From Escherichia coli O157:H7 (lineage in GTDB: Bacteria > Pseudomonadota > Gammaproteobacteria > Enterobacterales > Enterobacteriaceae), in NCBI RefSeq assembly GCF_013167455.1, contig NZ_CP038328.1: 64,000 bases of DNA; one strand, given 5' to 3'. The notes under the pieces are model-generated. The model had not been told where the DNA came from. It worked only from the letters and a program-made list of their open reading frames with translations, and did no database searches. Positions 15,766 through 40,572 of this stretch are shown here, one piece after another. The position numbers were made by a program, and so were the translations under genes. Position 1 is the first letter of the stretch. Each line of letters opens with the position of its first letter.

Positions 15766-15881
15766 TAATTGTCGCGAAACTGTCTGGATTGTGAGCAAAG
15801 GCGCAGGAATTCAGACACTCTCACTTATCACTTCACGGAATGAGGGTTACCATACCCGGATTGCATTGACAGGAGATGTCC

Positions 15882-16925
15882 ATGAGCGAGAACTCGATTC
15901 GTTTGACCCAATACAGCCACGGAGCTGGTTGCGGCTGTAAAATTTCCCCAAAAGTGTTGGAAACCATCCTGCACAGTGAGCAGGCGAAGTTTGTTGATCC
16001 GAATTTGCTTGTGGGTAATGAAACCCGCGACGATGCGGCGGTGTACGATCTGGGCAATGGCACCAGCGTTATCAGTACCACCGACTTCTTTATGCCGATC
16101 GTTGATAATCCTTTCGATTTTGGCCGCATTGCGGCGACTAACGCCATCAGCGATATCTTCGCGATGGGGGGCAAACCGATTATGGCAATTGCGATCCTCG
16201 GCTGGCCGATTAACAAACTTTCCCCGGAAATTGCCCGCGAAGTAACCGAAGGTGGACGCTATGCATGCCGTCAGGCGGGTATTGCGCTGGCTGGCGGTCA
16301 CTCCATCGATGCGCCGGAGCCGATTTTTGGTCTGGCGGTAACGGGGATCGTACCGACCGAGCGGGTGAAGAAAAACAGTACCGCACAAGCCGGATGTAAA
16401 CTGTTCCTGACGAAACCGCTGGGGATCGGCGTTCTTACCACGGCTGAGAAAAAATCACTGCTGAAACCAGAACATCAGGGACTGGCGACGGAAGTGATGT
16501 GCCGGATGAACATCGCAGGCGCGTCCTTTGCCAACATTGAAGGCGTAAAAGCGATGACCGACGTAACGGGCTTTGGCCTGCTGGGCCATTTGAGCGAAAT
16601 GTGTCAGGGCGCAGGTGTGCAGGCGCGCGTTGACTATGACGCGATCCCGAAATTGCCGGGGGTTGAAGAGTACATTAAGTTGGGTGCAGTGCCTGGCGGC
16701 ACCGAACGTAACTTTGCCAGCTACGGTCATCTGATGGGTGAAATGCCGCGTGAAGTGCGCGATTTGCTGTGCGATCCGCAAACTTCTGGCGGTTTGCTGC
16801 TGGCGGTCATGCCGGAAGCCGAAAATGAGGTCAAAGCTACAGCCGCCGAGTTTGGCATTGAACTGACGGCGATTGGCGAACTGGTGCCAGCACGCGGCGG
16901 TCGTGCCATGGTTGAGATCCGTTAA
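15882..16925 (+). CDS. selD: selenide, water dikinase (selenophosphate synthetase)
   Basis: 347 codons [23 protein letters not shown] with the glycine-rich Cys/Lys N-terminal motif. Confidence 0.9.
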
Positions 16926-21754: not shown

Positions 21755-22027
21755 GTGAGTCGAGCATTGTTCGCCGTAGTATTAGCATTTCCATTAATTG
21801 CACTGGCTAACCCGCATTATGGTCCGGACGTGGAGGTAAACGTACCGCCAGAAGTGGTCAGTTCAGGCGGGCAGTCAGCGCAGCCCTGTACTCAGTGCTG
21901 CGTTTATCAGGATAAAAATTATTCTGAAGGGGCGGTAATTAAAGCCGAAGGAATACTGCTGCAATGCCAGCGGGATGACAAAACCCTTAGCACTAATCCG
22001 CTGGTCTGGCGGCGCGTAAAGCCATAA
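21755..22027 (+). CDS. ynjH: secreted small protein of unknown function (DUF1496)
   Basis: 90-aa ORF with GTG start 6 nt after AAGGAG; N-terminal signal peptide MSRALFAVVLAFPLIALA. Confidence 0.75.
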   Translation: MSRALFAVVLAFPLIALANPHYGPDVEVNVPPEVVSSGGQSAQPCTQCCVYQDKNYSEGAVIKAEGILLQCQRDDKTLSTNPLVWRRVKP

Positions 22028-22486: not shown

Positions 22487-23107
22487 GTGCTAGACCGCCA
22501 TCTTCATCCCCGGATTAAACCGTTGTTGCATCAGTGTGTGCGGGTTCTTGATAAACCGGGCATTACGCCAGATGGTTTAACATTAGTGGGATTTGCCATC
22601 GGTGTGCTGGCACTGCCTTTTCTGGCGCTGGGCTGGTATCTGGCGGCGCTTGTCGTCATTTTGTTGAACAGGCTGCTTGATGGTCTGGACGGTGCGCTGG
22701 CGCGGCGCAGAGGGCTTACCGACGCGGGCGGCTTTCTTGATATTTCTCTCGATTTTCTTTTTTACGCGCTGGTACCTTTTGGGTTTATCCTCGCCGCACC
22801 GCAGCAAAACGCCCTGGCAGGCGGCTGGCTGCTGTTTGCGTTTATCGGCACGGGTAGCAGTTTTCTCGCTTTTGCTGCGCTGGCGGCGAAATATCAGATT
22901 GATAATCCCGGTTATGCGCATAAATCGTTTTATTATCTGGGGGGATTAACCGAAGGCACAGAAACGATCTTACTGTTTGTGCTGGGATGTTTATTCCCTG
23001 CATGGTTTGCGTGGTTTGCGTGGATCTTCGGTGCGTTGTGCTGGATGACGACCTTTACGCGGGTGTGGAGTGGGTATCTGACGCTGAAGTCGCTCCAGCG
23101 TCAGTAA
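22487..23107 (+). CDS. ynjF: CDP-alcohol phosphatidyltransferase family membrane protein
   Basis: 206 codons from the GTG at 22487 (6 nt after AAGGAG); DG(x2)AR...G...D...D motif (LDGLDGALARRRGLTDAGGFLDISLD). Confidence 0.8.
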   Translation: MLDRHLHPRIKPLLHQCVRVLDKPGITPDGLTLVGFAIGVLALPFLALGWYLAALVVILLNRLLDGLDGALARRRGLTDAGGFLDISLDFLFYALVPFGFILAAPQQNALAGGWLLFAFIGTGSSFLAFAALAAKYQIDNPGYAHKSFYYLGGLTEGTETILLFVLGCLFPAWFAWFAWIFGALCWMTTFTRVWSGYLTLKSLQRQ

Positions 23108-23115
23108 TTGCAATG

Positions 23116-24438
23116 TTATTTGCTGCTGTCCGGGCCGCGTTCACCGGTTGCTACCGGATTTTTTGGATCGCTGCTCCATTCGTACCAGCCGCCGTCGTAA
23201 ACGGAGACGTTATTCCAGCCCATTGCTCGTGCGTACATAAAGGTTTCGGACGCGCGCCAGCCGGTGCCGCAGTAGAATGAAACTTGCTGATCTGGTTTGA
23301 TATTCCATGCTTTCCACATAGCGGTAATATCATCGGCGCTACGCATGGTGCCATCCGGATTATGGAAATCTTCCATATGCGTCGAGTCGCTACCAGCGTG
23401 TCCCCAACGTGCTCCGGCTATTTCACCTTTTGGTTTAATATAGCTGTAACCGCTGGTCGTACCGATAAATTCTGGCCACGAACGAATGCTCACCAGCGAT
23501 GCATCCTGGCGATGCAGCAGTCCACGGGCCTGTTCCATATCGAGCATCAACTGCGGTTGTGCCGGGATCTTCACGCCGAAATCCGGTTCCGCTTTCACTT
23601 TCGGTGGCGTACCGCGCTCAACGGGCAGACCCGCGTCGGACCAGGTTTGCCAGCCGCCATCCAGCAGGCGCACATCTTTCACGCCGGCATAAAGCATAAT
23701 CTGCGCCACACGCGCTGCAGCGTATACGTCACGCCCGTACAGAATGACCGTGGTGTCATGGCGAATGCCGTGTTTTGCCAGCATCGCTTTTAGTTGTTCA
23801 TCAGAAACTTTGTTCCACAGCGGTTCGCTTTCCACTTCGTTGGTATCGATGTAGTCAGCACCGGGAATATGGCTGATAAGGTAAAGCTTAGGAGCGCCCC
23901 TGGCCGCTTCAATGACTTTCCAGTCACCGGCAGGTTTCGCCGTAACCTCTTTACCTTGTTGCAGGTCGTGCAGCCATTGCGGATAAACCAGCTGCTCAAA
24001 GTGCGGCAGTTTTTGTAGACGGGAAGGTTCGCTTAGCGCGTCACTCAGAATGGAGATATGCGTAAAACCTGCTTTTTGCAGTCGCGTTTTGACGGCGTCG
24101 ACATCTTTGCCATTACCGTACAGCGCCACCGGGGCATCGGCTTTCAGGTTATGTTGCTTGATCCACGCGTTGAGCTGTTCGGTGCTCATTTTGTCAAGCC
24201 AGCTAGCAGAGAGGTTTAAGGCGGCAGGTTCATGACCAGAAGGGCCATTTAAGGTTTGTGGCCAGCCGTTATAAAACGCGCTGGAGCGAGTATCTATCGC
24301 TTTGCCATTTTGTTGTTGAAGCTGGTCAAGTGTAAGAGGCTTCGCCAGTTCAGCGGCCCACGAAGAAGCGCAAGCCAGCCCTAAAGCCATTGCCAGCGCG
24401 GTCATTTGAGAAACACGTTTCATCGAAAATCCCGACAT
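23116..24438 (-). CDS. ynjE: three-domain rhodanese (thiosulfate/mercaptopyruvate sulfurtransferase), periplasmic
   Basis: 440-aa ORF (435 aa from the second Met); signal peptide; active-site loop CGTGWRAS. Confidence 0.85.
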   Translation of the reverse strand: MSGFSMKRVSQMTALAMALGLACASSWAAELAKPLTLDQLQQQNGKAIDTRSSAFYNGWPQTLNGPSGHEPAALNLSASWLDKMSTEQLNAWIKQHNLKADAPVALYGNGKDVDAVKTRLQKAGFTHISILSDALSEPSRLQKLPHFEQLVYPQWLHDLQQGKEVTAKPAGDWKVIEAARGAPKLYLISHIPGADYIDTNEVESEPLWNKVSDEQLKAMLAKHGIRHDTTVILYGRDVYAAARVAQIMLYAGVKDVRLLDGGWQTWSDAGLPVERGTPPKVKAEPDFGVKIPAQPQLMLDMEQARGLLHRQDASLVSIRSWPEFIGTTSGYSYIKPKGEIAGARWGHAGSDSTHMEDFHNPDGTMRSADDITAMWKAWNIKPDQQVSFYCGTGWRASETFMYARAMGWNNVSVYDGGWYEWSSDPKNPVATGERGPDSSK

Positions 24439-24489
24439 TGTAGTTTTGAGTGCGCCATTCTGAACTGACGCATTGAGAAAAACTTTGCG

Positions 24490-25143
24490 TTATCGCAGTT
24501 TGTTGTAATTTTCTGACCACTGCGCCATATCCAGAACAGAACTATCAGCAGGAACATCCTGGAGATCGTGCGTTACCTGAACGACGGGGATCGCCAGTTC
24601 GCGAACTTCGCTGAACACCCACTGGCGAAAATTATCGCGCAGAGCCACATCAAGACGGCTGAATGGCTCATCCAGTAGCAACGCTTTTGGCTGAGCGAGA
24701 AGGGCGCGAAGCAGAGCAACGCGCGCTCGCTGACCGCCAGACAAAGTAGCAGGATCCTGATGGAAAGCTCCGTCAAGGCCTGAACGCTCAAGTGCATCAT
24801 TCACGGCATTACGTCGGGCATTCCCCTTAAGTGTCGCCGGTAGCGCCAGCAGTAAATTTTGCCCGACACTGAACTGGTCAAATAACAGTGCATCCTGAAA
24901 AAGAATGCCAATCTGACGCTGTGCGGTGGGTAGCATGTCAATCCGTTGCTCATTGAGCCATAGCTCACCTGTACAAGAAAACTGTCCGGCCAGTGCACCA
25001 ATCATCCATGAAAACAGAGTGGATTTTCCACAGCCAGACGGCCCCATTAACGTGACAATGTCACCTTTATCCACCGTAAAGTTAACGTTTGTCAGCAAGC
25101 AACTTTCTGGTAAACGTAGCGAAACATTTTTCACGCAGAGCAT
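24490..25143 (-). CDS. ynjD: ABC transporter ATP-binding protein
   Basis: 217 codons from MLCVKNVSLRL; Walker A GPSGCGKST, signature LSGGQRARV, Walker B LLLDE; start overlaps the ynjC stop. Confidence 0.85.
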   Translation of the reverse strand: MLCVKNVSLRLPESCLLTNVNFTVDKGDIVTLMGPSGCGKSTLFSWMIGALAGQFSCTGELWLNEQRIDMLPTAQRQIGILFQDALLFDQFSVGQNLLLALPATLKGNARRNAVNDALERSGLDGAFHQDPATLSGGQRARVALLRALLAQPKALLLDEPFSRLDVALRDNFRQWVFSEVRELAIPVVQVTHDLQDVPADSSVLDMAQWSENYNKLR

Positions 25144-26678
25144 TAGCGGAGTCCTTGTCTGACATAACCTACCCATTTTGCGACTAACGCGGTCAGGGCA
25201 AAAATAATAAGCGGTAATAGCAGTTGCCATAAAGCCAGGGCGGCGAGAATACCGTTGCTGCCGCCGCTGCTTAATGCCACCGCCTCAGTGGTGAGCGTCG
25301 GAAAACGCCCCGCGCCCAGCCACAGCGTCGGCATATACTGCGCAATACTGACTGAAAATCCCACCGCGAAGGCAATCAGCGTAGGGCGTAGCATAAGCGG
25401 ACATTTCACGTAAAAGAAGATTTTGGCCCGCGACCAGCCCAGTGTTTGTGCAATCAAAATTAACCGTGAATCAATGCGCTGCCAGGCGGGTTGCAGGATA
25501 AACAGCATCCACGGCATTACCCACAGCAGATGCCCCCAGACCACCGCCGTCCAGCTTCCATCCATGTTCAGCCATAGCGCCAGCGTGTACTGGCCCGCCA
25601 CCAGCGGCAGTGCCGGTAATAAAATCGGCAACCATAGCCACAACTGGCGACGCTGTGGCCCCCATTCCAGCCACAGCAGTAACAGGAGCAAAGCGATGAA
25701 TGTCGCCACCAGCCCCATTGTCAGGCTGTTGATGAGCGCTTCACTATTGATCGTCGACTGATCCGCGAGGATCGCCAGCAGAACCACACACAGCACACTG
25801 GTCAAGGGTAAAAAACTCGCCAGCGTAATGCCTGGCAATAAAGGCGTGGCAGGCTTACGAACGCCATCTACGCGGGGAATAGTACGCCGCCAGGTACACC
25901 ATAGCAGATAGCCCAGCAAAACGTAGGCGGCGAGTAACAACATCAGCAGCAGGCTGGCGAGTGCGCCTTTCGTTTGTTGATCGGCGTCGCCCTGAGTTAA
26001 CCACTGCCAGCTAATTACTGCCAGCGTCGGTGGATTACCTGGCCCAAGAATAATCGCCACATCTACGACCGACAGCGACCAGGCAACAATCGCCAGCATC
26101 GCCATTGCCAGCGCAGGCGCGACGGAGGGCAACAGCAGCCAGTTCAGGCATTGCCAGCGGCTGTAGCCCAGCGAATCCAGCACGATGACTTGCTGTAAAA
26201 GCCGTTTTTCACTCAATACCGCTGCTAAGATCCACAGCAGAAATGCGCTTTCTTTCACCGCCAGCGTGAAGCCCAGCCCAATACCCAATTTGTCCATTGG
26301 CGGAGTGAAATACGGGAAATAGTCATAAAGCAGCCCTCCGTCAGCAAAGAGCAGAAGGGCGCTGGTGGCAAAAGCCACATGGGGAATGGCGAGCAGCCAC
26401 GGCAGACGGGTGCACATACGCTGCCATTTCGGCCCAGGCCACAGCGCCACAATCACCAGTAGGGCAATCAACAACGCCCCGACCGCCGCGATGGTTGTCG
26501 ACACCAGCGTTGCCAGTAATGCCTGCGGTAACTGTGGATCGGCAAATAACGCCTGCCAGTGTGTCAACGACAAAGCAGGCGATATCAGCGTGAGAGCTGC
26601 CGGGATCAGCGGTGCATAAATCACCGCCACCATCGCCCACAGCAAAAAGATTAATGCGTACCGTAACGGTGTAGCCAT
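25143..26678 (-). CDS. ynjC: ABC transporter permease (fused two-domain)
   Basis: 511 codons from MATPLRYALIFLLW; about 12 hydrophobic spans. Confidence 0.85.
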   Translation of the reverse strand: MATPLRYALIFLLWAMVAVIYAPLIPAALTLISPALSLTHWQALFADPQLPQALLATLVSTTIAAVGALLIALLVIVALWPGPKWQRMCTRLPWLLAIPHVAFATSALLLFADGGLLYDYFPYFTPPMDKLGIGLGFTLAVKESAFLLWILAAVLSEKRLLQQVIVLDSLGYSRWQCLNWLLLPSVAPALAMAMLAIVAWSLSVVDVAIILGPGNPPTLAVISWQWLTQGDADQQTKGALASLLLMLLLAAYVLLGYLLWCTWRRTIPRVDGVRKPATPLLPGITLASFLPLTSVLCVVLLAILADQSTINSEALINSLTMGLVATFIALLLLLLWLEWGPQRRQLWLWLPILLPALPLVAGQYTLALWLNMDGSWTAVVWGHLLWVMPWMLFILQPAWQRIDSRLILIAQTLGWSRAKIFFYVKCPLMLRPTLIAFAVGFSVSIAQYMPTLWLGAGRFPTLTTEAVALSSGGSNGILAALALWQLLLPLIIFALTALVAKWVGYVRQGLR

Positions 26679-27817
26679 TCTTGTTCCAGCGCATTTACCC
26701 AACCTGCGTGCGGTTCAGCCAGTACCGGCGGCAGATCTTGCGGCATTCTTGATTGCAATGTTTCGCGCTGCCCATCAGGCAGTTTTTGCGGATCGAGAAC
26801 AGAAGGATCGCCCCAGACAGCGGGATCTGCTTTACGCAATTGCGCATCGGGTGAGAGCAAGAAATTGGCAACTACCTTCGCCGCAGCACTGGCATTCGCG
26901 TTGGCAGGAATGGTGACGAAATGCACGTTGCCAATCATCCCCTCGCGAAAGCCAAAACTGTAACTGCTTGCAGGCAAATCGCCGCTGGCGATTTTTTGCT
27001 GCGCATGCGCGGGGTTAAAGGTCAGCGACAGGCGAAATGTTCCGGCTTTCAGCAGAGCATCCATCCGCGCGGGCGAAGGCGGGAAATCCTTTCCTTCGCG
27101 CCACAAATACGGATGCAGCGCATCAAGATATTGCCACAAGGGAGCAGTGACACGGGCGAAAGTCGCATCGTTCGGCGCTTCATTTAATGCGGCGGGATCG
27201 GGCGTCAGCATAATCAGCAACTGTTCAAGAAACGCCGTGCCGGTAAAGTCCGGTGGGCGCGGATAGGTAACCGTGCCGGGATTGGCTTTAGCAAACTCCA
27301 GTAAGGCTTGCGGCGTTTGTGGTGGCTGTGGCGTAACATCGCGGCGGGCGATAAATGTCAGTTGTGCGCCCCCCCAGGGCGATTCAGCCCCTTCTGTAGG
27401 CACTGAAAAATCTTCCCGCACCGGCAGCTGTGTGTCGACATAGCGCCAGTTGGGCAGAGTCTCTGCCCAGTCGGTTTGCAGTAAATTGGCCTCTTTTAAG
27501 GTGCGGAAGTTTTCGCCGTTCACCCAGAGCAGATCCACCGAGCCGCCCGTTTTACGTCCGGCAGCAGCTTCGGTCTGAATGCGCTTCACCGCGTCTGCGG
27601 CATCCGCCAGACGAACAATCTTCAGGTTTATAGCGTAATGGGTTTTCATCTCGCCGCTAACCCAGTCGAGATAGCGGTTAATTGCGGTATCGCCGCCCCA
27701 GGCGTTAAACCAGACAGTTTGCCCTTTGGCCTCATTTTTAATTTCTTGCCAGTCACTGGCATGTGTTGCCAGAGAAAACAGCGATAACAATCCCAGCAAC
27801 CACCCACAATGGCGCAT
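26651..27817 (-). CDS. ynjB: ABC transporter periplasmic substrate-binding protein
   Basis: 388 codons with signal peptide MRHCGWLLGLLSLFSLATHA; overlaps the ynjC start by 28 bp. Confidence 0.8.
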   Translation of the reverse strand: MRHCGWLLGLLSLFSLATHASDWQEIKNEAKGQTVWFNAWGGDTAINRYLDWVSGEMKTHYAINLKIVRLADAADAVKRIQTEAAAGRKTGGSVDLLWVNGENFRTLKEANLLQTDWAETLPNWRYVDTQLPVREDFSVPTEGAESPWGGAQLTFIARRDVTPQPPQTPQALLEFAKANPGTVTYPRPPDFTGTAFLEQLLIMLTPDPAALNEAPNDATFARVTAPLWQYLDALHPYLWREGKDFPPSPARMDALLKAGTFRLSLTFNPAHAQQKIASGDLPASSYSFGFREGMIGNVHFVTIPANANASAAAKVVANFLLSPDAQLRKADPAVWGDPSVLDPQKLPDGQRETLQSRMPQDLPPVLAEPHAGWVNALEQEWLHRYGTH

Positions 27818-27826
27818 CATCTCTCC

Positions 27827-28375
27827 TTAAGAACGTTTTTCCGGAATACGGCACAGCCCCTGAGCGGGAATGTCCATGGCAGAATTAAAACGGGCTGACA
27901 GATTTTGCAGGCCGATCAATGCCGTCAGTTCGGTGAGCTCCTGAGCGTCAAAATGCGCAGCCAGTCGGGTACGCAGGGCATCATCGACCGTTGGCGGCGT
28001 TACGCTTGCGGCTTCGGCGTACTCCAGCGCCAGCCGTTCTTCATCGCTAAAGAGCGGGCTTTGCCGCCAGTCAGCCACTGCCAGCAGTTTATCGCTGCTG
28101 CCGGTGCGCTCGGCGACTTTCATACTGGTGATATCCACACAAAACTCACACAGGCACATTTGCGCAATGCGCGCGCTGACAAGCGATCGTACTACCGGAT
28201 CGAGCGGTGAGCGTTTGCGCTCCAGCCAGCCAACAAACATCGACACCAGATAAAAGATAAACGGGATCCGCCCCCACCAGCGAATGGGGCTTAGCACCTC
28301 GCCGTAATGGCGACGATGCAGCCACGCCTGCGGACGTAAAATGAAAGGAATTTTGCTAAGCGGCGGTAAACCCAT
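27827..28375 (-). CDS. ynjA: AhpD-like / carboxymuconolactone decarboxylase family protein
   Basis: 182-aa ORF with CxxC motif (MCLCEFCVD) typical of AhpD-like proteins. Confidence 0.8.
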   Translation of the reverse strand: MGLPPLSKIPFILRPQAWLHRRHYGEVLSPIRWWGRIPFIFYLVSMFVGWLERKRSPLDPVVRSLVSARIAQMCLCEFCVDITSMKVAERTGSSDKLLAVADWRQSPLFSDEERLALEYAEAASVTPPTVDDALRTRLAAHFDAQELTELTALIGLQNLSARFNSAMDIPAQGLCRIPEKRS

Positions 28376-29082
28376 CAGGCATTCCTCTTCTGGCGCTCAA
28401 GCCATATTTTCTTCGCCATAAAAATCACCACGGTCAGGGCAAACAGAATAAACAGTCCGGTGACAAACCAGAAGGTACCGCCTGTTAACATGCTGCCCGC
28501 CCAGGAATAAACAATAGTCGCCGGTAACTGACCAAGCCCGGTGGCGATAAAAAACGAGCGAAAACGTATTGAAGTCAAACCGGCAGCATAGCTGATTGGA
28601 TCGAAAGGGACAAAAGGCAATAACCGACAGACCAGGATGGTGTGTTTGCCGTAGCGAGTGAAAAAGCCGTCCATACTGTCAAGTACGGTTTTGCCGGTTA
28701 ATTTTTCCACCACTTCGCGGCCCATCACTCTGGCGATAAAAAAGCACAGTGCCGCGCCGGCCATCGAACTGGTCCACGACAGCGAGCCGCCCCAGAACGC
28801 GCCAAACAGCGACGCATTGGCAAAGGTGATCAAAAACGCAGGTAGCGGTGCAGCAATGGCCTGTAAAATCATCAACAAGAACGAGACAACTGCCGCCAGT
28901 GCGCCGTAAGACTGAATAAAGCGTTCTATACCCTGTTGGTCCACGGCGGCAAACGCCGCAACGCTGCGATTGATAAACTCATGGACGCCGGGAAGCAGCG
29001 CCCATGCCAGCAGCATAGCGAACAACAGGATGATGAGGGTTATACGGTAGTACCAGATTTTACGCGATTGCATCTTCATCAT
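28375..29082 (-). CDS. ydjZ: DedA-family inner-membrane protein
   Basis: 235-aa hydrophobic ORF; stop overlaps the ynjA start. Confidence 0.8.
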   Translation of the reverse strand: MMKMQSRKIWYYRITLIILLFAMLLAWALLPGVHEFINRSVAAFAAVDQQGIERFIQSYGALAAVVSFLLMILQAIAAPLPAFLITFANASLFGAFWGGSLSWTSSMAGAALCFFIARVMGREVVEKLTGKTVLDSMDGFFTRYGKHTILVCRLLPFVPFDPISYAAGLTSIRFRSFFIATGLGQLPATIVYSWAGSMLTGGTFWFVTGLFILFALTVVIFMAKKIWLERQKRNA

Positions 29083-29096
29083 CCTTTATCCTGGCT

Positions 29097-29774
29097 TTAT
29101 TCGGTGATTTTAAAGGTAACCGTTGCCAGCGTGTTATTCGCCGGGAGAACCGAGGCATTGCCTTTGAATTTAACTTCACCTCGTTTTTCAACCGCACCAT
29201 AAGTGTATGTTGCATTGCTGACGATGCCGACCGGGCAGCTATCCAGACACACCAGGCAACCCGTTTTCTTCTCTTCTGCTGCCGTTAAATTACCGCCAAA
29301 GCGCATGTCCAGTTTCTTGCCATTACTGTCAACAATCACTTCATCGAAGGAATACGTTTTTGCCGCCCCTTGCCAGTTGACCGAAATATCCAGTTTGCTG
29401 CCTGTGACATGAGTCGTTTCTTTATTATCCATCGTCATGTTTTCGCCCGGTGTACCACCTGCCTCTTTCAGGGCTTCATAAAATGCTTTCGGGGTCGCAT
29501 AACCCATAAACAGCGATTTATGTCCGTTGGAGCCATCTTTAAACACAATACCGTGACGAGTGTCGTCGGTGAGGAAACGACCATTAATTTGCACCAGCAT
29601 GGTTACCGTATGGTTATTGGCATCGACGCGCAGCGGTTGGCTGTTCGAAAGTCCGTCGTATTCCACTTTTGCCGCCGCATTCTCTTTTTGATCGCAGCCG
29701 CTAAGCCCAGCAACAGCCAGTAAGCAGAGTGCAGTCAGTCCTTTTTTCCATGACACTGAATAATGTTGCAACAT
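29097..29774 (-). CDS. ydjY: lipoprotein with C-terminal CxxCxxxCP cysteine motif
   Basis: 225 codons from MLQHYSVSWKKGLTALCLLAVAGLSGC (lipobox LSGC); C-terminal GCLVCLDSCP. Confidence 0.75.
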   Translation of the reverse strand: MLQHYSVSWKKGLTALCLLAVAGLSGCDQKENAAAKVEYDGLSNSQPLRVDANNHTVTMLVQINGRFLTDDTRHGIVFKDGSNGHKSLFMGYATPKAFYEALKEAGGTPGENMTMDNKETTHVTGSKLDISVNWQGAAKTYSFDEVIVDSNGKKLDMRFGGNLTAAEEKKTGCLVCLDSCPVGIVSNATYTYGAVEKRGEVKFKGNASVLPANNTLATVTFKITE

Positions 29775-29778
29775 CGTT

Positions 29779-30489
29779 CTATCCTTCATTTTTTGGGTGA
29801 GTAAGTGGGTTGCGGCGCGAAGCAGACAGATCCACATGTTTGTGTCGGGCGTAGAGTTTTGCGAGCTGGACGAGAATAAACAGCGCCAGGCCCGCCAGAC
29901 AGAGTTGTAAAATAAAGCGCAGCGTAATGCCTTCATTGGCGAGATCGCTTGCCATCACGGTATAAATAACAATACCGGGCAGGGTCGTGAGTGCCGAAAT
30001 AAGGGTATAAGGCCAGAAGGCGATTGTGGTTAATCCGTAAGCGTAATTTTGAATATTGTAAGGAAACAACGGGATTAAGCGGGTCAGAATAAGAAAATCA
30101 ATACCGTTACGCGCAATGCCTTTTTCAATGGCCTGGAAGGTATGGCTATGGCCAACGTATTTCAGCAGTAAATCACGTCCCATCCAGCGCGCCAGCAGGA
30201 ATGAGCACGAGGAGGCCAGCGTGGCGGCAATTAATGAGAGTAGTGTCCCTAAGAACGGGCCAAAAACTATTCCTCCCGCGATCACCAATATGCTTCCTGG
30301 TAACAGAAAGAGGGTGGCAATGATGAATAACAGAATATAGAGGCTATAACCGAACAATCCGCTCTGGCGAATGAGTGTCTGTAAGTGGGGTAAATCGGTG
30401 AGCAGATCGAATAAACCGAAAGCGTGGATAGCGTAAATGGCCAGCGCAAAAATAAGACAGGCAAAAAGAAATTTACGCTCAGCGTTCAT
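29779..30489 (-). CDS. ydjX: DedA/TVP38-family inner-membrane protein
   Basis: 236 codons from MNAERKFLFACLIFALAIY; first gene of the minus-strand cluster. Confidence 0.8.
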   Translation of the reverse strand: MNAERKFLFACLIFALAIYAIHAFGLFDLLTDLPHLQTLIRQSGLFGYSLYILLFIIATLFLLPGSILVIAGGIVFGPFLGTLLSLIAATLASSCSFLLARWMGRDLLLKYVGHSHTFQAIEKGIARNGIDFLILTRLIPLFPYNIQNYAYGLTTIAFWPYTLISALTTLPGIVIYTVMASDLANEGITLRFILQLCLAGLALFILVQLAKLYARHKHVDLSASRRNPLTHPKNEG

Positions 30490-30655
30490 CGTGGAGTTTC
30501 CTATATCAAACTTGATAATAGAGAAGTGGTCAGACAACTAAAAACGCAGTGACGGTATAACAAAGGACGGCAGGCAACAAATCATTACTGACAGTTTGTT
30601 GATTTTTCTCAAGGTTAATTCTCCTGACCCAGTTTGAGCCAGGAGAGCTGCTAAA

Positions 30656-40469: not shown

Positions 40470-40572
40470 TGCTACGCCTGTCAGGCCTATTCGACTCCTG
40501 CAATGTATTGAATTTGCATAGTTTTGTAGGTCGAATAAGGCGTTCACGCCGCATCCGGCGTGAACAAATTAC
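40470..40572. repeat. BIME/REP cluster between cho and nadE
   Basis: Palindromic units CGCCTGTCAGGCCTATTCGAC and TGTAGGTCGAATAAGGCGTTCACGCCGCATCCGGCGTGAACA. Confidence 0.65.

Follow-up and report, generated by a model that had tools for sequence, protein, structure and literature searches.

The window analysed here is a stretch of 64,000 nucleotides of Escherichia coli O157:H7 (contig NZ_CP038328.1). Eight intact genes, ydjXYZ and ynjABCDE, occupy the minus strand between positions 23116 and 30489, according to the open reading frame list, the PGAP annotation of a reference of 100% identity and our own translation (Table 1). Gene order and overlaps are as described in an earlier, sequence-only reading of the region: ydjZ and ynjA have 1 nt in common (TGATG), as do ynjC and ynjD (TAATG), ynjB and ynjC overlap by 28 nt, and the remaining intergenic distances are 4, 14 and 9 nt, apart from the 66 nt between ynjD and ynjE. 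The family labels given there also stand, i.e., two DedA/VTT proteins, a lipoprotein, a CMD/AhpD-like CxxC protein, an ABC importer and a three-domain periplasmic rhodanese. A further gene, ynjF, is convergent with ynjE across an 8-nt gap. The G+C content of the locus (0.48-0.57) is ordinary. All eight proteins have the same lengths as in K-12, with 2-18 substitutions per protein. Of 5426 complete E. coli genomes, 5424 carry the locus, and 5379 carry at least 80% of its length. The ydjXYZ-ynjABCD/ynjE locus is already annotated and, as a locus, is no new discovery; what is new here are the cross-phylum synteny, the gene fusions, the Cys3 motif and fold of YdjY, the cysteines of YdjZ and the recurrent neighbours.

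Table 1. Features of the ydjXYZ-ynjABCDE-ynjF region (positions in the window)
Feature	Coordinates	Strand	Description	Basis or location
ynjF	22487..23107	+	CDP-alcohol phosphatidyltransferase-family membrane protein, 206 aa	PGAP name
ynjE	23116..24423	-	periplasmic three-domain rhodanese, 435 aa, active-site loop C385-GTGWR	structures 3IPO, 2WLR
ynjD-ynjE spacer	24424..24489	-	spacer with separate ynjE promoter	promoter scan and sequence
ynjD	24490..25143	-	ABC ATPase, 217 aa, without C-terminal regulatory domain	
ynjC	25143..26678	-	fused double ABC permease, 511 aa	twelve hydrophobic segments
ynjB	26651..27817	-	periplasmic substrate-binding protein, 388 aa	NF008633, 560 bits vs cut-off 203
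ynjA	27827..28375	-	CMD/AhpD-like protein, 182 aa, motif C74-L-C76-E-F-C79	PF02627, E = 5e-8
ydjZ	28375..29082	-	DedA/VTT inner-membrane protein, 235 aa, near-invariant C113 and C152	
ydjY	29097..29774	-	lipoprotein, 225 aa, GCLxCLDSCP motif (Cys173/176/180)	
ydjX	29779..30489	-	DedA/VTT (TVP38/TMEM64-type) inner-membrane protein, 236 aa	PGAP name
FNR-box-like site TTGAGAAAAATCAA	30599..30612	-		xthA-ydjX spacer, ~116 nt upstream of ydjX start

Transcription units and anaerobic control

The eight genes had been read as a single operon, which does not agree with published ChIP and expression data; these define two FNR-activated units, with a ynjE promoter in the 66-nt spacer. The ydjXYZ-ynjABCD unit is directly activated by FNR from a site at -60.5, while ynjE is a unit by itself, activated by FNR from a site at -41.5 (Myers 2013). 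The sole near-consensus box within the xthA-ydjX spacer, TTGAGAAAAATCAA, has one mismatch to TTGAT-N4-ATCAA and probably corresponds to the -60.5 site; this spacer differs from that of K-12 by one base, which lies outside the box. The ynjD-ynjE spacer, identical in K-12, contains a sigma-70-like site at 24464-24437 (promoter scan) and an FNR half-site (...TTTTCTCAA) at 24473-24486. A promoter between ydjXYZ and ynjA, which the sequence-only reading had named as evidence that would count against it, was not found in the data and literature consulted. In an independent-component expression study, ydjXYZ-ynjABCD and ynjE fall into one anaerobic module with yjiLM and yedEF, the latter described as a putative selenium transporter and sulfurtransferase, and the same study proposes a link of this module to selenium and molybdenum use. 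The transcription units and their FNR control are thus already published, and the idea of a selenium or molybdenum role is not new.

Encoded proteins and their relatives

YnjE carries a signal peptide and matches its solved structures with E ~1e-280. It is periplasmic and shows poor activity with thiosulfate and 3-mercaptopyruvate (published); consequently, its natural donor or acceptor is probably something else. Its nearest solved relative after its own structures is EanB, the anaerobic ergothioneine synthase, a rhodanese-like sulfurtransferase that forms C-S bonds (E ~1e-88, residues 33-427), and the loop FYCGTGWR and the segment SGY(S/N)YIK are conserved between them. Unlike EanB, YnjE is exported and no EanA-type methyltransferase lies near its gene; shared chemistry is putative only, and E. 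coli is not known to make ergothioneine.

The importer YnjBCD has no assigned substrate in the literature searched, as the earlier reading had stated. YnjB, which has a signal peptide and an AlphaFold model of pLDDT 85, gave no match in a sequence search of the PDB. Its closest solved folds are cluster-D binding proteins (TM 0.55-0.65, 12-18% identity) that bind iron, phosphonate, polyamines or sugar phosphates, not oxyanion binders of the CysP/ModA type, and its invariant residues are chiefly aromatic and acidic; YnjBCD is therefore probably not an importer of selenite or thiosulfate. YnjB shares the fold class of cluster-D importers with a fused double permease, such as ThiBPQ (thiamine), PhnSTUV (2-aminoethylphosphonate) and FbpABC (iron), and YnjC is likewise a fused permease, with weak matches to PhnU2, CysT and ModB and with PF00528 on its orthologues. 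Compared with these systems, YnjB defines an NCBIfam subfamily of its own. YnjD contains Walker A (GPSGCGKST), signature (LSGGQ) and Walker B (LLLDEP) motifs, its best NCBIfam matches being the PhnT2, sulfate, ThiQ and ModC ATPases.

YdjX and YdjZ carry the VTT/DedA domain of the DedA-superfamily lipid transporters (the undecaprenyl-phosphate flippase UptA and the scramblases TMEM41B/VMP1) and fall in the TMEM41/Tvp38 branch. YdjX has five hydrophobic segments and a weak NCBIfam match to UptA, and PF09335 is present in its orthologues. YdjZ, which is 50-58% identical to its Firmicutes orthologues, differs from the lipid transporters by two near-invariant cysteines: among 57 YdjZ-like sequences, 55 have C113 and 52 have C152, whereas 31 YdjX-like sequences have a cysteine at these columns in 0 and 4 cases, respectively, and E. 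coli YdjX has neither. Moreover, unlike those transporters, the pair is linked with a cysteine-bearing lipoprotein and with a rhodanese.

This lipoprotein, YdjY, has no solved relative of its fold, and its three motif cysteines are invariant across 22 sequences from several phyla. Its lipobox is LSGC with Asp at +2, the inner-membrane retention signal of lipoproteins, and the prediction is that YdjY is not released from this membrane. A signal peptide or transmembrane segment was looked for in YnjA and none was found. YnjA scores 101 bits against NF053654 ('YciW-related (seleno)protein'), under the cut-off of that family, and in alignments with PA0269-type AhpD-like structures it retains the CxxC pair while Thr replaces the conserved His. 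Its CxCxxC motif is retained in the CMD paralogues of Citrobacter and Kluyvera. In other taxa an HdrD-like Fe-S protein stands in its place, and Fer4-CCG::DedA fusions adjoin YdjY in eight Desulfobacterota lineages; the best NCBIfam match of the Fer4-CCG partners is 'pyridine nucleotide-disulfide oxidoreductase/dicluster-binding protein'. YnjF matches archaetidylinositol-phosphate and PIP synthases weakly.

Synteny and gene fusions across phyla

We sampled 80 YdjY loci from 44 lineage groups, which are not independent of one another, include many metagenome bins and rest on crude ORF calling. The YdjY gene adjoins a DedA gene almost always, DedA being present in 29 groups in addition to fusions. 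Binding proteins of the YnjB subfamily occur in 9 of the 44 groups (381-491 bits vs cut-off 203), YnjE-like rhodaneses in 6 and YnjF-like genes in 5. These families adjoin one another in Firmicutes, Desulfobacterota and Campylobacterota with partly kept order, including colinear operons (loci L059, L055 and L068). Rhodanese::YdjY (P0152, P0232) and DedA::YdjY (P0122, P0192) fusions were detected, and rhodanese fusions also occur in AFDB. Recurrent adjacency across phyla, these fusions and the common expression module bear out the earlier proposal of one functional unit. Its eight members were rightly recognised, but the unit as drawn was too small: the convergent ynjF belongs to it too, since YnjF-like genes lie within YdjY operons in four Firmicute lineages and ynjF forms a two-gene operon with an overlapping YnjA-like CMD gene in Citrobacter and Kluyvera. 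The locus lacks ydjY in four genera (Klebsiella, Raoultella, Citrobacter and Kluyvera), although ydjX, ydjZ, ynjA-E and ynjF are all retained there; YdjY is thus dispensable in these genera and cannot be an obligatory step of the relay discussed below.

Genes of selenium metabolism are found nearby. Four groups have SelD within 10 kb of YdjY, and 6 have a YedF-like gene within this distance; after the Facklamia cluster come selD-yedF-selB-selA, and the distance between selD and ynjE in E. coli is 6.2 kb. The arsenosugar-type protein ArsS and two 'arsenosugar' transferase families (TIGR04282, TIGR04283) adjoin YdjY/DedA genes in 6-8 lineage groups. This neighbourhood is named 'arsenosugar biosynthesis' in NCBIfam, earlier 'radical SAM/selenodomain-associated', and the E. 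coli window has only the part that is common to both contexts.

A possible cysteine relay and its rivals

The explanation that we favour, while holding it only tentatively, is a relay of thiols by which sulfane sulfur or selenium would cross the inner membrane in anaerobic cells. It builds on the observed gene structure, family membership, motif conservation, synteny and fusions. Periplasmic YnjE would load the element onto its active-site Cys and pass it to YdjY, from which the DedA pair YdjX/YdjZ, by way of the two conserved cysteines of YdjZ, would carry it through the membrane to cytoplasmic YnjA, which would receive it on its CxCxxC motif or free it reductively. In other phyla the HdrD-like Fe-S/CCG protein, sometimes fused to DedA, would replace YnjA. 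YnjBCD would import some solute, probably not an oxyanion; this solute, or an alcohol related to it, may be joined by YnjF to a carrier that is either a lipid or CDP-activated. Which way the element flows, which element it is, each transfer between partners and what YnjBCD and YnjF do are our inferences. The exported parts, the Cys motifs, the fusions, the synteny, the nearness of SelD/YedF, the co-expression with yedEF and the FNR control suggest such a relay. Against it stand the loci without ydjY, the dissimilarity of YnjB to CysP/ModA-type binders and the lipid-moving activity of the characterised DedA proteins. No phenotype links these genes to selenium or sulfur supply, and the classical E. 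coli formate-dehydrogenase/selenium mutant screens did not, to our knowledge, yield them. SelD nearness may be due to selenoprotein genes (ArsS-type, PrdB-like) inside those clusters. The sulfur- or redox-linked uptake proposed in the sequence-only reading survives as a theme, in agreement with the rhodanese fusions, the Cys motifs and the HdrD-like swap; a sulfur compound as the ligand of YnjB would be conjectural, the nearest folds being those of iron, phosphonate and polyamine binders.

Some neighbours, namely YnjF, choline-kinase-like kinases, nucleotidyltransferase-like proteins and MprF-like flippase domains, suit a special membrane lipid pathway better than the relay. YnjBCD would then import an alcohol or amino-alcohol head group, which in other taxa a kinase and a nucleotidyltransferase-like protein would first activate, Kennedy-style, and which YnjF would join to CDP-diacylglycerol; the DedA pair (elsewhere MprF-like flippase domains) would flip the lipid to the outer leaflet, where YdjY and YnjE would modify or use it. 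In keeping with this, YnjF-like genes directly precede YnjB-type importer genes in YdjY operons, the YnjA-like gene of Citrobacter and Kluyvera is translationally coupled to ynjF, choline-kinase/APH-like kinases, DUF2064/CofC-like proteins (TIGR04282) and GT2 transferases (TIGR04283) recur, and an OlsE-like lipid hydroxylase is fused to YdjY. The aromatic and acidic residues of YnjB would also suit an amine or polyol ligand. Such a pathway would not explain why YdjY, YdjZ and YnjA have invariant cysteines, nor would it account for the rhodanese fusions and the HdrD-like redox partner; moreover, E. coli is not known to have an anaerobic phospholipid that lacks an explanation. Its kinase, nucleotidyltransferase and GT2 partners are absent from the E. 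coli window. Characterised DedA relatives are lipid movers and distinct lipids have been proposed for other family members, yet of eight paralogues in E. coli, DedA was the only one with strong undecaprenyl-phosphate transport, and YdjX and YdjZ gave none (published). We consider the lipid pathway unlikely. The HdrD/CCG-type disulfide-reductase domain fused to DedA in Desulfobacterota and the AhpD-type CxxC of YnjA would equally be expected of a periplasmic thiol/disulfide shuttle that imports no element; the DedA pair would exchange a small thiol/disulfide or thiol lipid, re-reduced in the cytoplasm by YnjA or the HdrD-like protein, with YdjY and YnjE as periplasmic clients. The Facklamia cluster includes a CcdA/DsbD-like membrane protein and a ResA-like thioredoxin, and outer-face cysteines therefore need a supply of reductant. 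This shuttle, which we hold to be quite unlikely, would leave the ABC importer and YnjF without a role and the SelD/YedF association and yedEF co-expression unexplained, and E. coli already has DsbD and CydDC for periplasmic reducing power.

ArsS (337 bits vs cut-off 300) and the two 'arsenosugar' transferase families (224 vs 182; 178 vs 134), found with YdjY in 8 groups and pointing to arsenic or a 5-deoxyribosyl product rather than to the relay, raise the question of metalloid handling. The YdjY CxxCxxxC and YnjA CxCxxC motifs would bind arsenite or antimonite, also when methylated or thiolated, and move them in or out, feeding ArsS-type arsenosugar synthesis in some taxa, where a nucleoside-hydrolase-like gene and an MTR-kinase-like kinase would complete a 5-deoxyriboside route. 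It is well established that three cysteines can coordinate As(III) in a trigonal Cys3 site, the spacing of the YnjA motif is that of the As(III) site of ArsR, and YdjY homologues occur in Desulfuribacillus stibiiarsenatis. We nevertheless regard metalloid handling as improbable: arsM, arsR, arsB/acr3 and arsC are not among the recurrent YdjY neighbours, ArsS and its partner transferases are absent from the E. coli window, FNR control and yedEF co-expression do not suggest arsenic, and the names of TIGR04282 and TIGR04283 are presumably annotations by association. Equally doubtful is that the genes share an anaerobic promoter and no common function, the DedA pair being a spare for membrane homeostasis, YnjBCD a thiamine- or phosphonate-like importer and YnjE a helper of Moco sulfuration. 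YnjE is indeed named 'molybdopterin synthase sulfurtransferase' in the K-12 RefSeq record and appears in the literature as a Moco-related enzyme, YnjB is called 'putative thiamine transport system' in some sources, and YnjD and YnjC most resemble the ThiQ and PhnT2/PhnU2 families. This is already disfavoured by synteny, as the same subfamilies recur together in distant phyla with partly kept order, and also by the gene fusions, by translational coupling and by the export of YnjE. Molybdopterin synthase, moreover, is cytoplasmic.

The cysteine relay would have parallels in known systems. YeeE/YeeD (TsuA/TsuB) brings in sulfur species, here thiosulfate, by means of a Cys-bearing membrane protein and a small cytoplasmic thiol protein. 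A selenium-metabolism role is predicted for the paralogous YedE/YedF, whose genes are those co-expressed with the E. coli locus. The present locus has no sequence relation to YeeE/YeeD; its membrane part is a DedA pair without the YeeE fold, and it adds a periplasmic rhodanese and lipoprotein, an ABC importer and a lipid-type transferase. In MerP-MerT-MerA mercury uptake, the order of a periplasmic Cys protein, a Cys-pair membrane protein and a cytoplasmic disulfide-oxidoreductase-type enzyme would be similar, but as an analogy only, the cargo being different and homology to any Mer protein absent by NCBIfam comparison. In E. coli the locus represents a nine-gene inner-membrane system that is conserved in other bacteria and induced under anaerobiosis.

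Gene set and transcription of the locus

The window is a segment of an O157-type E. coli chromosome in which the ORF list, the reference annotation and our own translation concur on eight intact minus-strand genes, ydjX, ydjY, ydjZ, ynjA, ynjB, ynjC, ynjD and ynjE, as the sequence-only reading had described. The gene junctions also agree with it: ydjZ/ynjA and ynjC/ynjD share one base each, and ynjB and ynjC overlap by 28 nt. The interval 23116-30489 is matched at 100% in several O157 genomes and the locus was found in 5424 of 5426 complete E. coli genomes. All eight proteins have K-12 lengths, with 2-18 substitutions each. A signature of horizontal transfer was sought through the G+C content of the locus, and base composition proved ordinary. 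The plus-strand gene ynjF converges with ynjE, leaving 8 nt between the stop codons, and a published tool lists the two as an 'excludon' pair. Relatives of ynjF recur within YdjY/DedA/YnjB operons of Firmicutes, and ynjF belongs to the system, though it lay outside the gene set first delimited. The parts form one system, of nine genes in E. coli when ynjF is included. The earlier proposal of a functional unit holds to this extent, but neither as a single operon nor with eight genes. None of the seven proteins scanned (the nine-protein set minus YnjC and YnjD) matched a PADLOC family, and a defence role was rejected.

Transcription divides the locus in two. A genome-wide FNR study reports two directly FNR-activated units, ydjXYZ-ynjABCD with a site at -60.5 and ynjE alone with a site at -41.5, and FNR control rests on published ChIP and expression evidence. 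These K-12 data can be transferred to the window because both promoter regions are essentially identical to those of K-12. FNR boxes in the sequence, together with the published FNR-dependent expression, place the locus in the FNR regulon. Within the xthA-ydjX spacer, TTGAGAAAAATCAA alone comes near the FNR consensus, and the 66-nt ynjD-ynjE spacer contains an FNR half-site upstream of ynjE and the sole sigma-70-like site that a consensus scan detected on the operon's strand across the locus. The motifs derived from the sequence are centred about 116 and about 56 nt upstream of the two start codons. After an approximate conversion between K-12 sequence versions, the published site coordinates fall about 20 and about 77 nt upstream of the ydjX and ynjE starts, so that they do not map exactly onto these motifs.

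The consensus scan revealed no promoter between ydjZ and ynjA, and neither the scan nor the literature gave promoter evidence splitting ydjXYZ from ynjA onward, in line with the sequence-only reading. A BaeR overexpression paper treats ynjABCD as an operon and reports ynjA and ynjB up 1.4-1.6-fold, probably indirectly; this weak induction is no evidence for a separate promoter. In a genomic SELEX for PdhR targets, one peak fell within the xthA-ydjX spacer, which shows no PdhR box. Independent-component analysis applied to E. coli transcriptomes defined an "uncharacterized" module consisting of ydjXYZ-ynjABCD, ynjE, yedEF and yjiLM, which is more active anaerobically and reduced in fnr and arcA mutants; that study suggested a connection with the use of selenium and molybdenum. 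Reading the ydjX, ynjE, yedE and yjiM promoters for a shared operator yielded only FNR-like half-sites. Ahead of ydjX, 15 nt from its start codon and near the mapped published FNR coordinate, stands the perfect inverted repeat TATCAA-GT-TTGATA. Its half-sites are in reversed order compared with those of an FNR box, and the upstream regions of ynjE, yedE and yjiM showed nothing comparable. The ynjE coding sequence also contains an exact copy of GTGGCGCAGATTATGCT, listed in a genome-wide study as an intragenic sigma-54 binding site.

Features of the locus and of the surrounding window
Feature	Position	Strand	Remark
selD	15876-16925	plus	selenophosphate synthetase, intact; 6.2 kb from ynjE
nudG/ynjH overlap	21993-22027		35 nt at the 3' ends
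ynjF	22487-23107	plus	CDP-alcohol phosphatidyltransferase-family gene
ynjE	23116-24423	minus	last gene of the eight
GTGGCGCAGATTATGCT copy	23693-23709	minus	within ynjE
ydjX	29779-30489	minus	first gene of the eight
TATCAA-GT-TTGATA	30504-30517	minus	inverted repeat upstream of ydjX
FNR-box-like TTGAGAAAAATCAA	30599-30612		upstream of ydjX; one mismatch
ES036 (CssrF) small RNA	40483-40525	minus	Rfam 42.9 bits (gathering score 37.6); between cho and nadE
espL1	58699-60597	minus	632-aa ORF; in the O157 reference, annotated as a type III secretion effector

ES036 is the only Rfam match in the window, where no tRNA gene was found. The presence of espL1 identifies the source as an enterohaemorrhagic-type strain. 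The genes nudG (minus) and ynjH (plus) are likewise listed as an excludon pair, and the position of nudG, encoding a CTP-type pyrophosphohydrolase, next to ynjF may or may not be meaningful. Strain FORC_044, whose operon matches at 100%, is not colinear with the window upstream. Its selD is annotated as frameshifted, and a 1.3-kb IS3-family insertion (FORC_044 record L092, 7911-9216) splits its MFS transporter gene ydjE. This insertion is absent from the window (about 9216-9222), where the ORF at 9015-10478 is uninterrupted; the window is therefore not from the strain of this best-matching record.

Protein families encoded by the nine genes

YdjX and YdjZ belong to the DedA/VTT family and, within it, to the TMEM41/Tvp38 branch. 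PF09335 is recorded on orthologues 73-76% identical to them, the literature treats both as DedA members, and their NCBIfam matches to UptA and DedA are weak. They were not classed as UptA-type flippases: NF052604 scores 27-36 bits against a cut-off of 250, and when all eight E. coli DedA paralogues were assayed in a published study (undecaprenyl-phosphate transport, MX2401 resistance), high-level resistance came from DedA alone. Across phyla, YdjZ orthologues share about 50-58% identity and carry C113 in 55 of 57 cases and C152 in 52 of 57; YdjX-like proteins have a cysteine in the corresponding columns in 0 and 4 of 31.

YdjY is a lipoprotein with the lipobox LSGC and an aspartate at +2, the inner-membrane retention signal of lipoproteins. 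The three cysteines of its GCLxCLDSCP motif are invariant, and its family is very small, amounting to 390 clusters in a set of 1.84 billion representatives. The "4Fe-4S ferredoxin-type" label that YdjY bears in K-12 RefSeq and UniProt entries is a motif artefact. Only three cysteines are present (CxxCxxxCP) against the four of CxxCxxCxxxCP, Pfam Fer4 matches are non-significant (E = 0.09-0.25), the lipoprotein signal is of the Sec type without a twin-arginine motif, and the fold is unlike that of ferredoxins.

The sequence-only reading called YnjA AhpD-like, which is right for the fold and the CxxC. The protein has a CMD domain (PF02627, E = 5e-8) whose C76-E-F-C79 aligns with the CxxC of PA0269-type structures. 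The proton-relay histidine of AhpD (CxxCxxxH) is however replaced by threonine (CVDIT vs CVNMH), and an additional Cys74 creates a CxCxxC motif; YnjA is therefore a CMD-fold thiol protein and not a canonical AhpD. In an ENA metagenome, a 574-aa protein (P0266), near-identical and of E. coli type, combines the CMD (YnjA) and binding-protein (YnjB) domains in one chain, which may be a true read-through fusion or an assembly or annotation artefact.

All parts of a binding-protein-dependent (type I) ABC importer are present in YnjBCD, as first read, and the literature searched likewise assigns it no substrate. YnjB has a signal peptide and falls in an NCBIfam subfamily of its own (NF008633, 560 bits against a cut-off of 203). 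Its structure model (pLDDT 85) shows the two-lobe class II binding-protein fold and has 930 PDB matches at E <= 0.001, binding proteins foremost, while no PDB entry matched YnjB by sequence. The structural neighbours, which are only distantly similar (TM 0.55-0.65), bind iron, phosphonate, polyamines, citrate or sugar phosphates and so span many ligand classes. With its 12 hydrophobic segments YnjC fits a permease of two six-helix halves, and it weakly resembles PhnU2, CysT and ModB; YnjD carries the Walker A (GPSGCGKST), signature (LSGGQ) and Walker B (LLLDEP) motifs. The identification of YnjE as a three-domain rhodanese was confirmed by 98-99% identity to the solved YnjE structures 3IPO and 2WLR. 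Its catalytic C385 lies within the CGTGWR loop of the rhodanese domain, a CxxGxR-type motif. Published work describes YnjE as periplasmic, with no apparent thiosulfate:glutathione activity and poor activity with thiosulfate or 3-mercaptopyruvate, its physiological substrate being described as unclear. Beyond its own structures, the closest solved relative is EanB, an anaerobic ergothioneine synthase.

YdjY-encoding loci in other bacteria

To compare gene contexts across phyla, 80 YdjY-encoding loci were collected from one-genome-per-species data and every ORF within 7 kb of YdjY was clustered without use of prior labels. Besides Escherichia, the loci come from many Firmicutes (Gemella, Finegoldia, Peptostreptococcus, Catonella, Facklamia, Clostridium and a Bacillus), Desulfobacterota, Campylobacter, Sulfurospirillum and a spirochaete. 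The counts below refer to 44 lineage groups that are our own labels and non-independent, with many loci from metagenome bins and simple ORF calling. DedA/VTT genes lie near YdjY in 29 groups, and Fer4-CCG::DedA fusions in 8 further groups of Desulfobacterota. A small four-helix membrane protein, either free or fused to the N-terminus of YdjZ, occurs in 30. It forms the third core component in other taxa, is about 130 aa long and shares ancestry with the N-terminal extension found on long YdjZ proteins (hhalign 98.6-99.4%); a profile search of the six-frame translation revealed no copy in the E. coli window. HdrD-like Fer4-CCG proteins were found in 16 groups, and YnjB-subfamily binding proteins (381-491 bits, cut-off 203) in 9, accompanied by half-size YnjC permeases and an ATPase. 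Less frequent neighbours are ArsS radical SAM enzymes with TIGR04282/TIGR04283 transferases and choline-kinase-like kinases (8 groups), YnjE-like rhodaneses and YedF-like genes (6 each), YnjF-like CDP-alcohol phosphatidyltransferases and MprF-like flippase domains (5 each) and SelD (4).

Three Firmicute operons are colinear with that of E. coli, in the order YdjY, small membrane protein, DedA, DedA, Fer4-CCG, YnjF, YnjB, YnjC, YnjD, the Fe-S/CCG protein occupying the position of E. coli YnjA. Elsewhere YdjY is fused to a DedA domain, a rhodanese domain or an OlsE-like lipid hydroxylase. No version of the system that we saw is richer than that of Facklamia lactis (locus L081, 2998-18235), where a single-strand run encodes a GT2 protein, a PrdB-like fragment whose end looks like a stop at a selenocysteine codon, ArsS, a CcdA/DsbD-like protein, a ResA-like thioredoxin, two DedA proteins, a nucleoside-hydrolase-like protein, the small membrane protein, YdjY and a rhodanese. 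Only a short gap, with two small ORFs on the opposite strand, separates this run from selD-yedF-selB-selA, which have its orientation. ArsS, TIGR04282 and TIGR04283 occur only in the YdjY clusters of other taxa and were not found in the E. coli window by tblastn. With ArsS and both transferases missing from the window, an ArsS-type 'arsenosugar'/radical SAM-selenodomain system was rejected for the E. coli locus.

Other enterobacteria retain a syntenic locus, flanked by xthA and nudG/gdhA, but without ydjY; YdjY is therefore accessory in this family. Klebsiella and Raoultella retain ydjX-ydjZ-ynjA-ynjBCD-ynjE and the convergent ynjF, while ydjX-ydjZ-ynjBCD-ynjE is the arrangement of the Citrobacter and Kluyvera loci that were examined, C. 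rodentium having only one DedA gene, which is divergent. On the opposite strand of these loci, a YnjA-like CMD gene and ynjF overlap and form an operon of two genes; the YnjA-like products are 50-57% identical and retain CxCxxC. YnjA and YnjF are tied to each other and to the cluster.

Possible functions and significance

In terms of protein families, the locus brings together an ABC importer and a DedA pair with a rhodanese and a CMD-fold protein. It was not classed as a UptA-type flippase, a canonical AhpD, a ferredoxin, an ArsS system or, on the seven proteins scanned, a defence system. In working logic it would come closest to the thiol relays Mer and YeeE/YeeD, to which it has no homology. 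Where the sequence-only reading proposed sulfur- or redox-linked uptake, the best single interpretation, which we advance tentatively as possible and short of probable, is a relay of sulfane sulfur or selenium from cysteine to cysteine. Cysteine proteins, the rhodanese and the three-cysteine lipoprotein, would act at the outer face, the DedA pair, with cysteines on one member, in the membrane, and a thiol or Fe-S disulfide-type redox protein at the inner face, the importer and the lipid-type transferase being added to this core; how the cargo is handed over, which way it moves and what it consists of are our inferences. Such a relay is suggested by the rhodanese::YdjY fusions and conserved cysteines, by SelD and YedF neighbours and the published co-expression with yedEF, by FNR control, exerted when E. 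coli makes selenium-dependent formate dehydrogenases, and by selD lying 6.2 kb away. It accounts poorly for YnjBCD, YnjF and the kinase, transferase and flippase neighbours. These same partners fit a lipid head-group pathway, which we regard as rather unlikely.

A periplasmic thiol/disulfide shuttle appears unlikely. Metalloid handling, to which the ArsS context and the sites with three cysteines would point, is in our judgement very unlikely, and there is equally little chance that the neighbouring genes have unrelated functions. A more specific version of the cysteine relay, in which the cluster and yedEF form a high-affinity selenium acquisition route of anaerobic bacteria, is a quite unlikely proposal. 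The periplasmic rhodanese and the lipoprotein would then capture selenium as perselenide or selenotrisulfide, the cysteine-bearing DedA would pass it through the membrane, a non-lipid cargo for this superfamily, and a cytoplasmic CxCxxC or HdrD-like reductase would release selenide for SelD. According to a 2022 review, a high-affinity transporter for selenium has yet to be identified.

Locus annotation, transcription units, FNR control and the selenium/molybdenum hypothesis are already in print. In the literature searched we found neither the YdjY-DedA-rhodanese-redox module shared across phyla nor the inclusion of ynjF, the YdjZ cysteine signature or the YdjY fusions, any of which may have been described before. 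The partner families may be discussed in the selenoprotein-neighbourhood papers of Haft and colleagues.

The operon itself will not surprise a specialist; the comparative evidence makes a long-standing gap directly testable. Nine unexplained genes in the core genome of the best-studied bacterium are switched on without oxygen, and gut and oral anaerobes share them. DedA proteins have so far been regarded as lipid movers, with ties to antibiotic resistance and, among eukaryotes, autophagy. If the cysteine relay is true, they could carry a chalcogen through conserved cysteines, which would bear on how bacteria supply trace selenium to formate dehydrogenases, and the locus may be an entry route for selenium. 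If the lipid pathway is true, E. coli makes an undescribed anaerobic lipid. Either way, a "y-gene operon" becomes the subject of specific tests, on three cysteine motifs, a nine-gene set and a partner regulon (yedEF, yjiLM).
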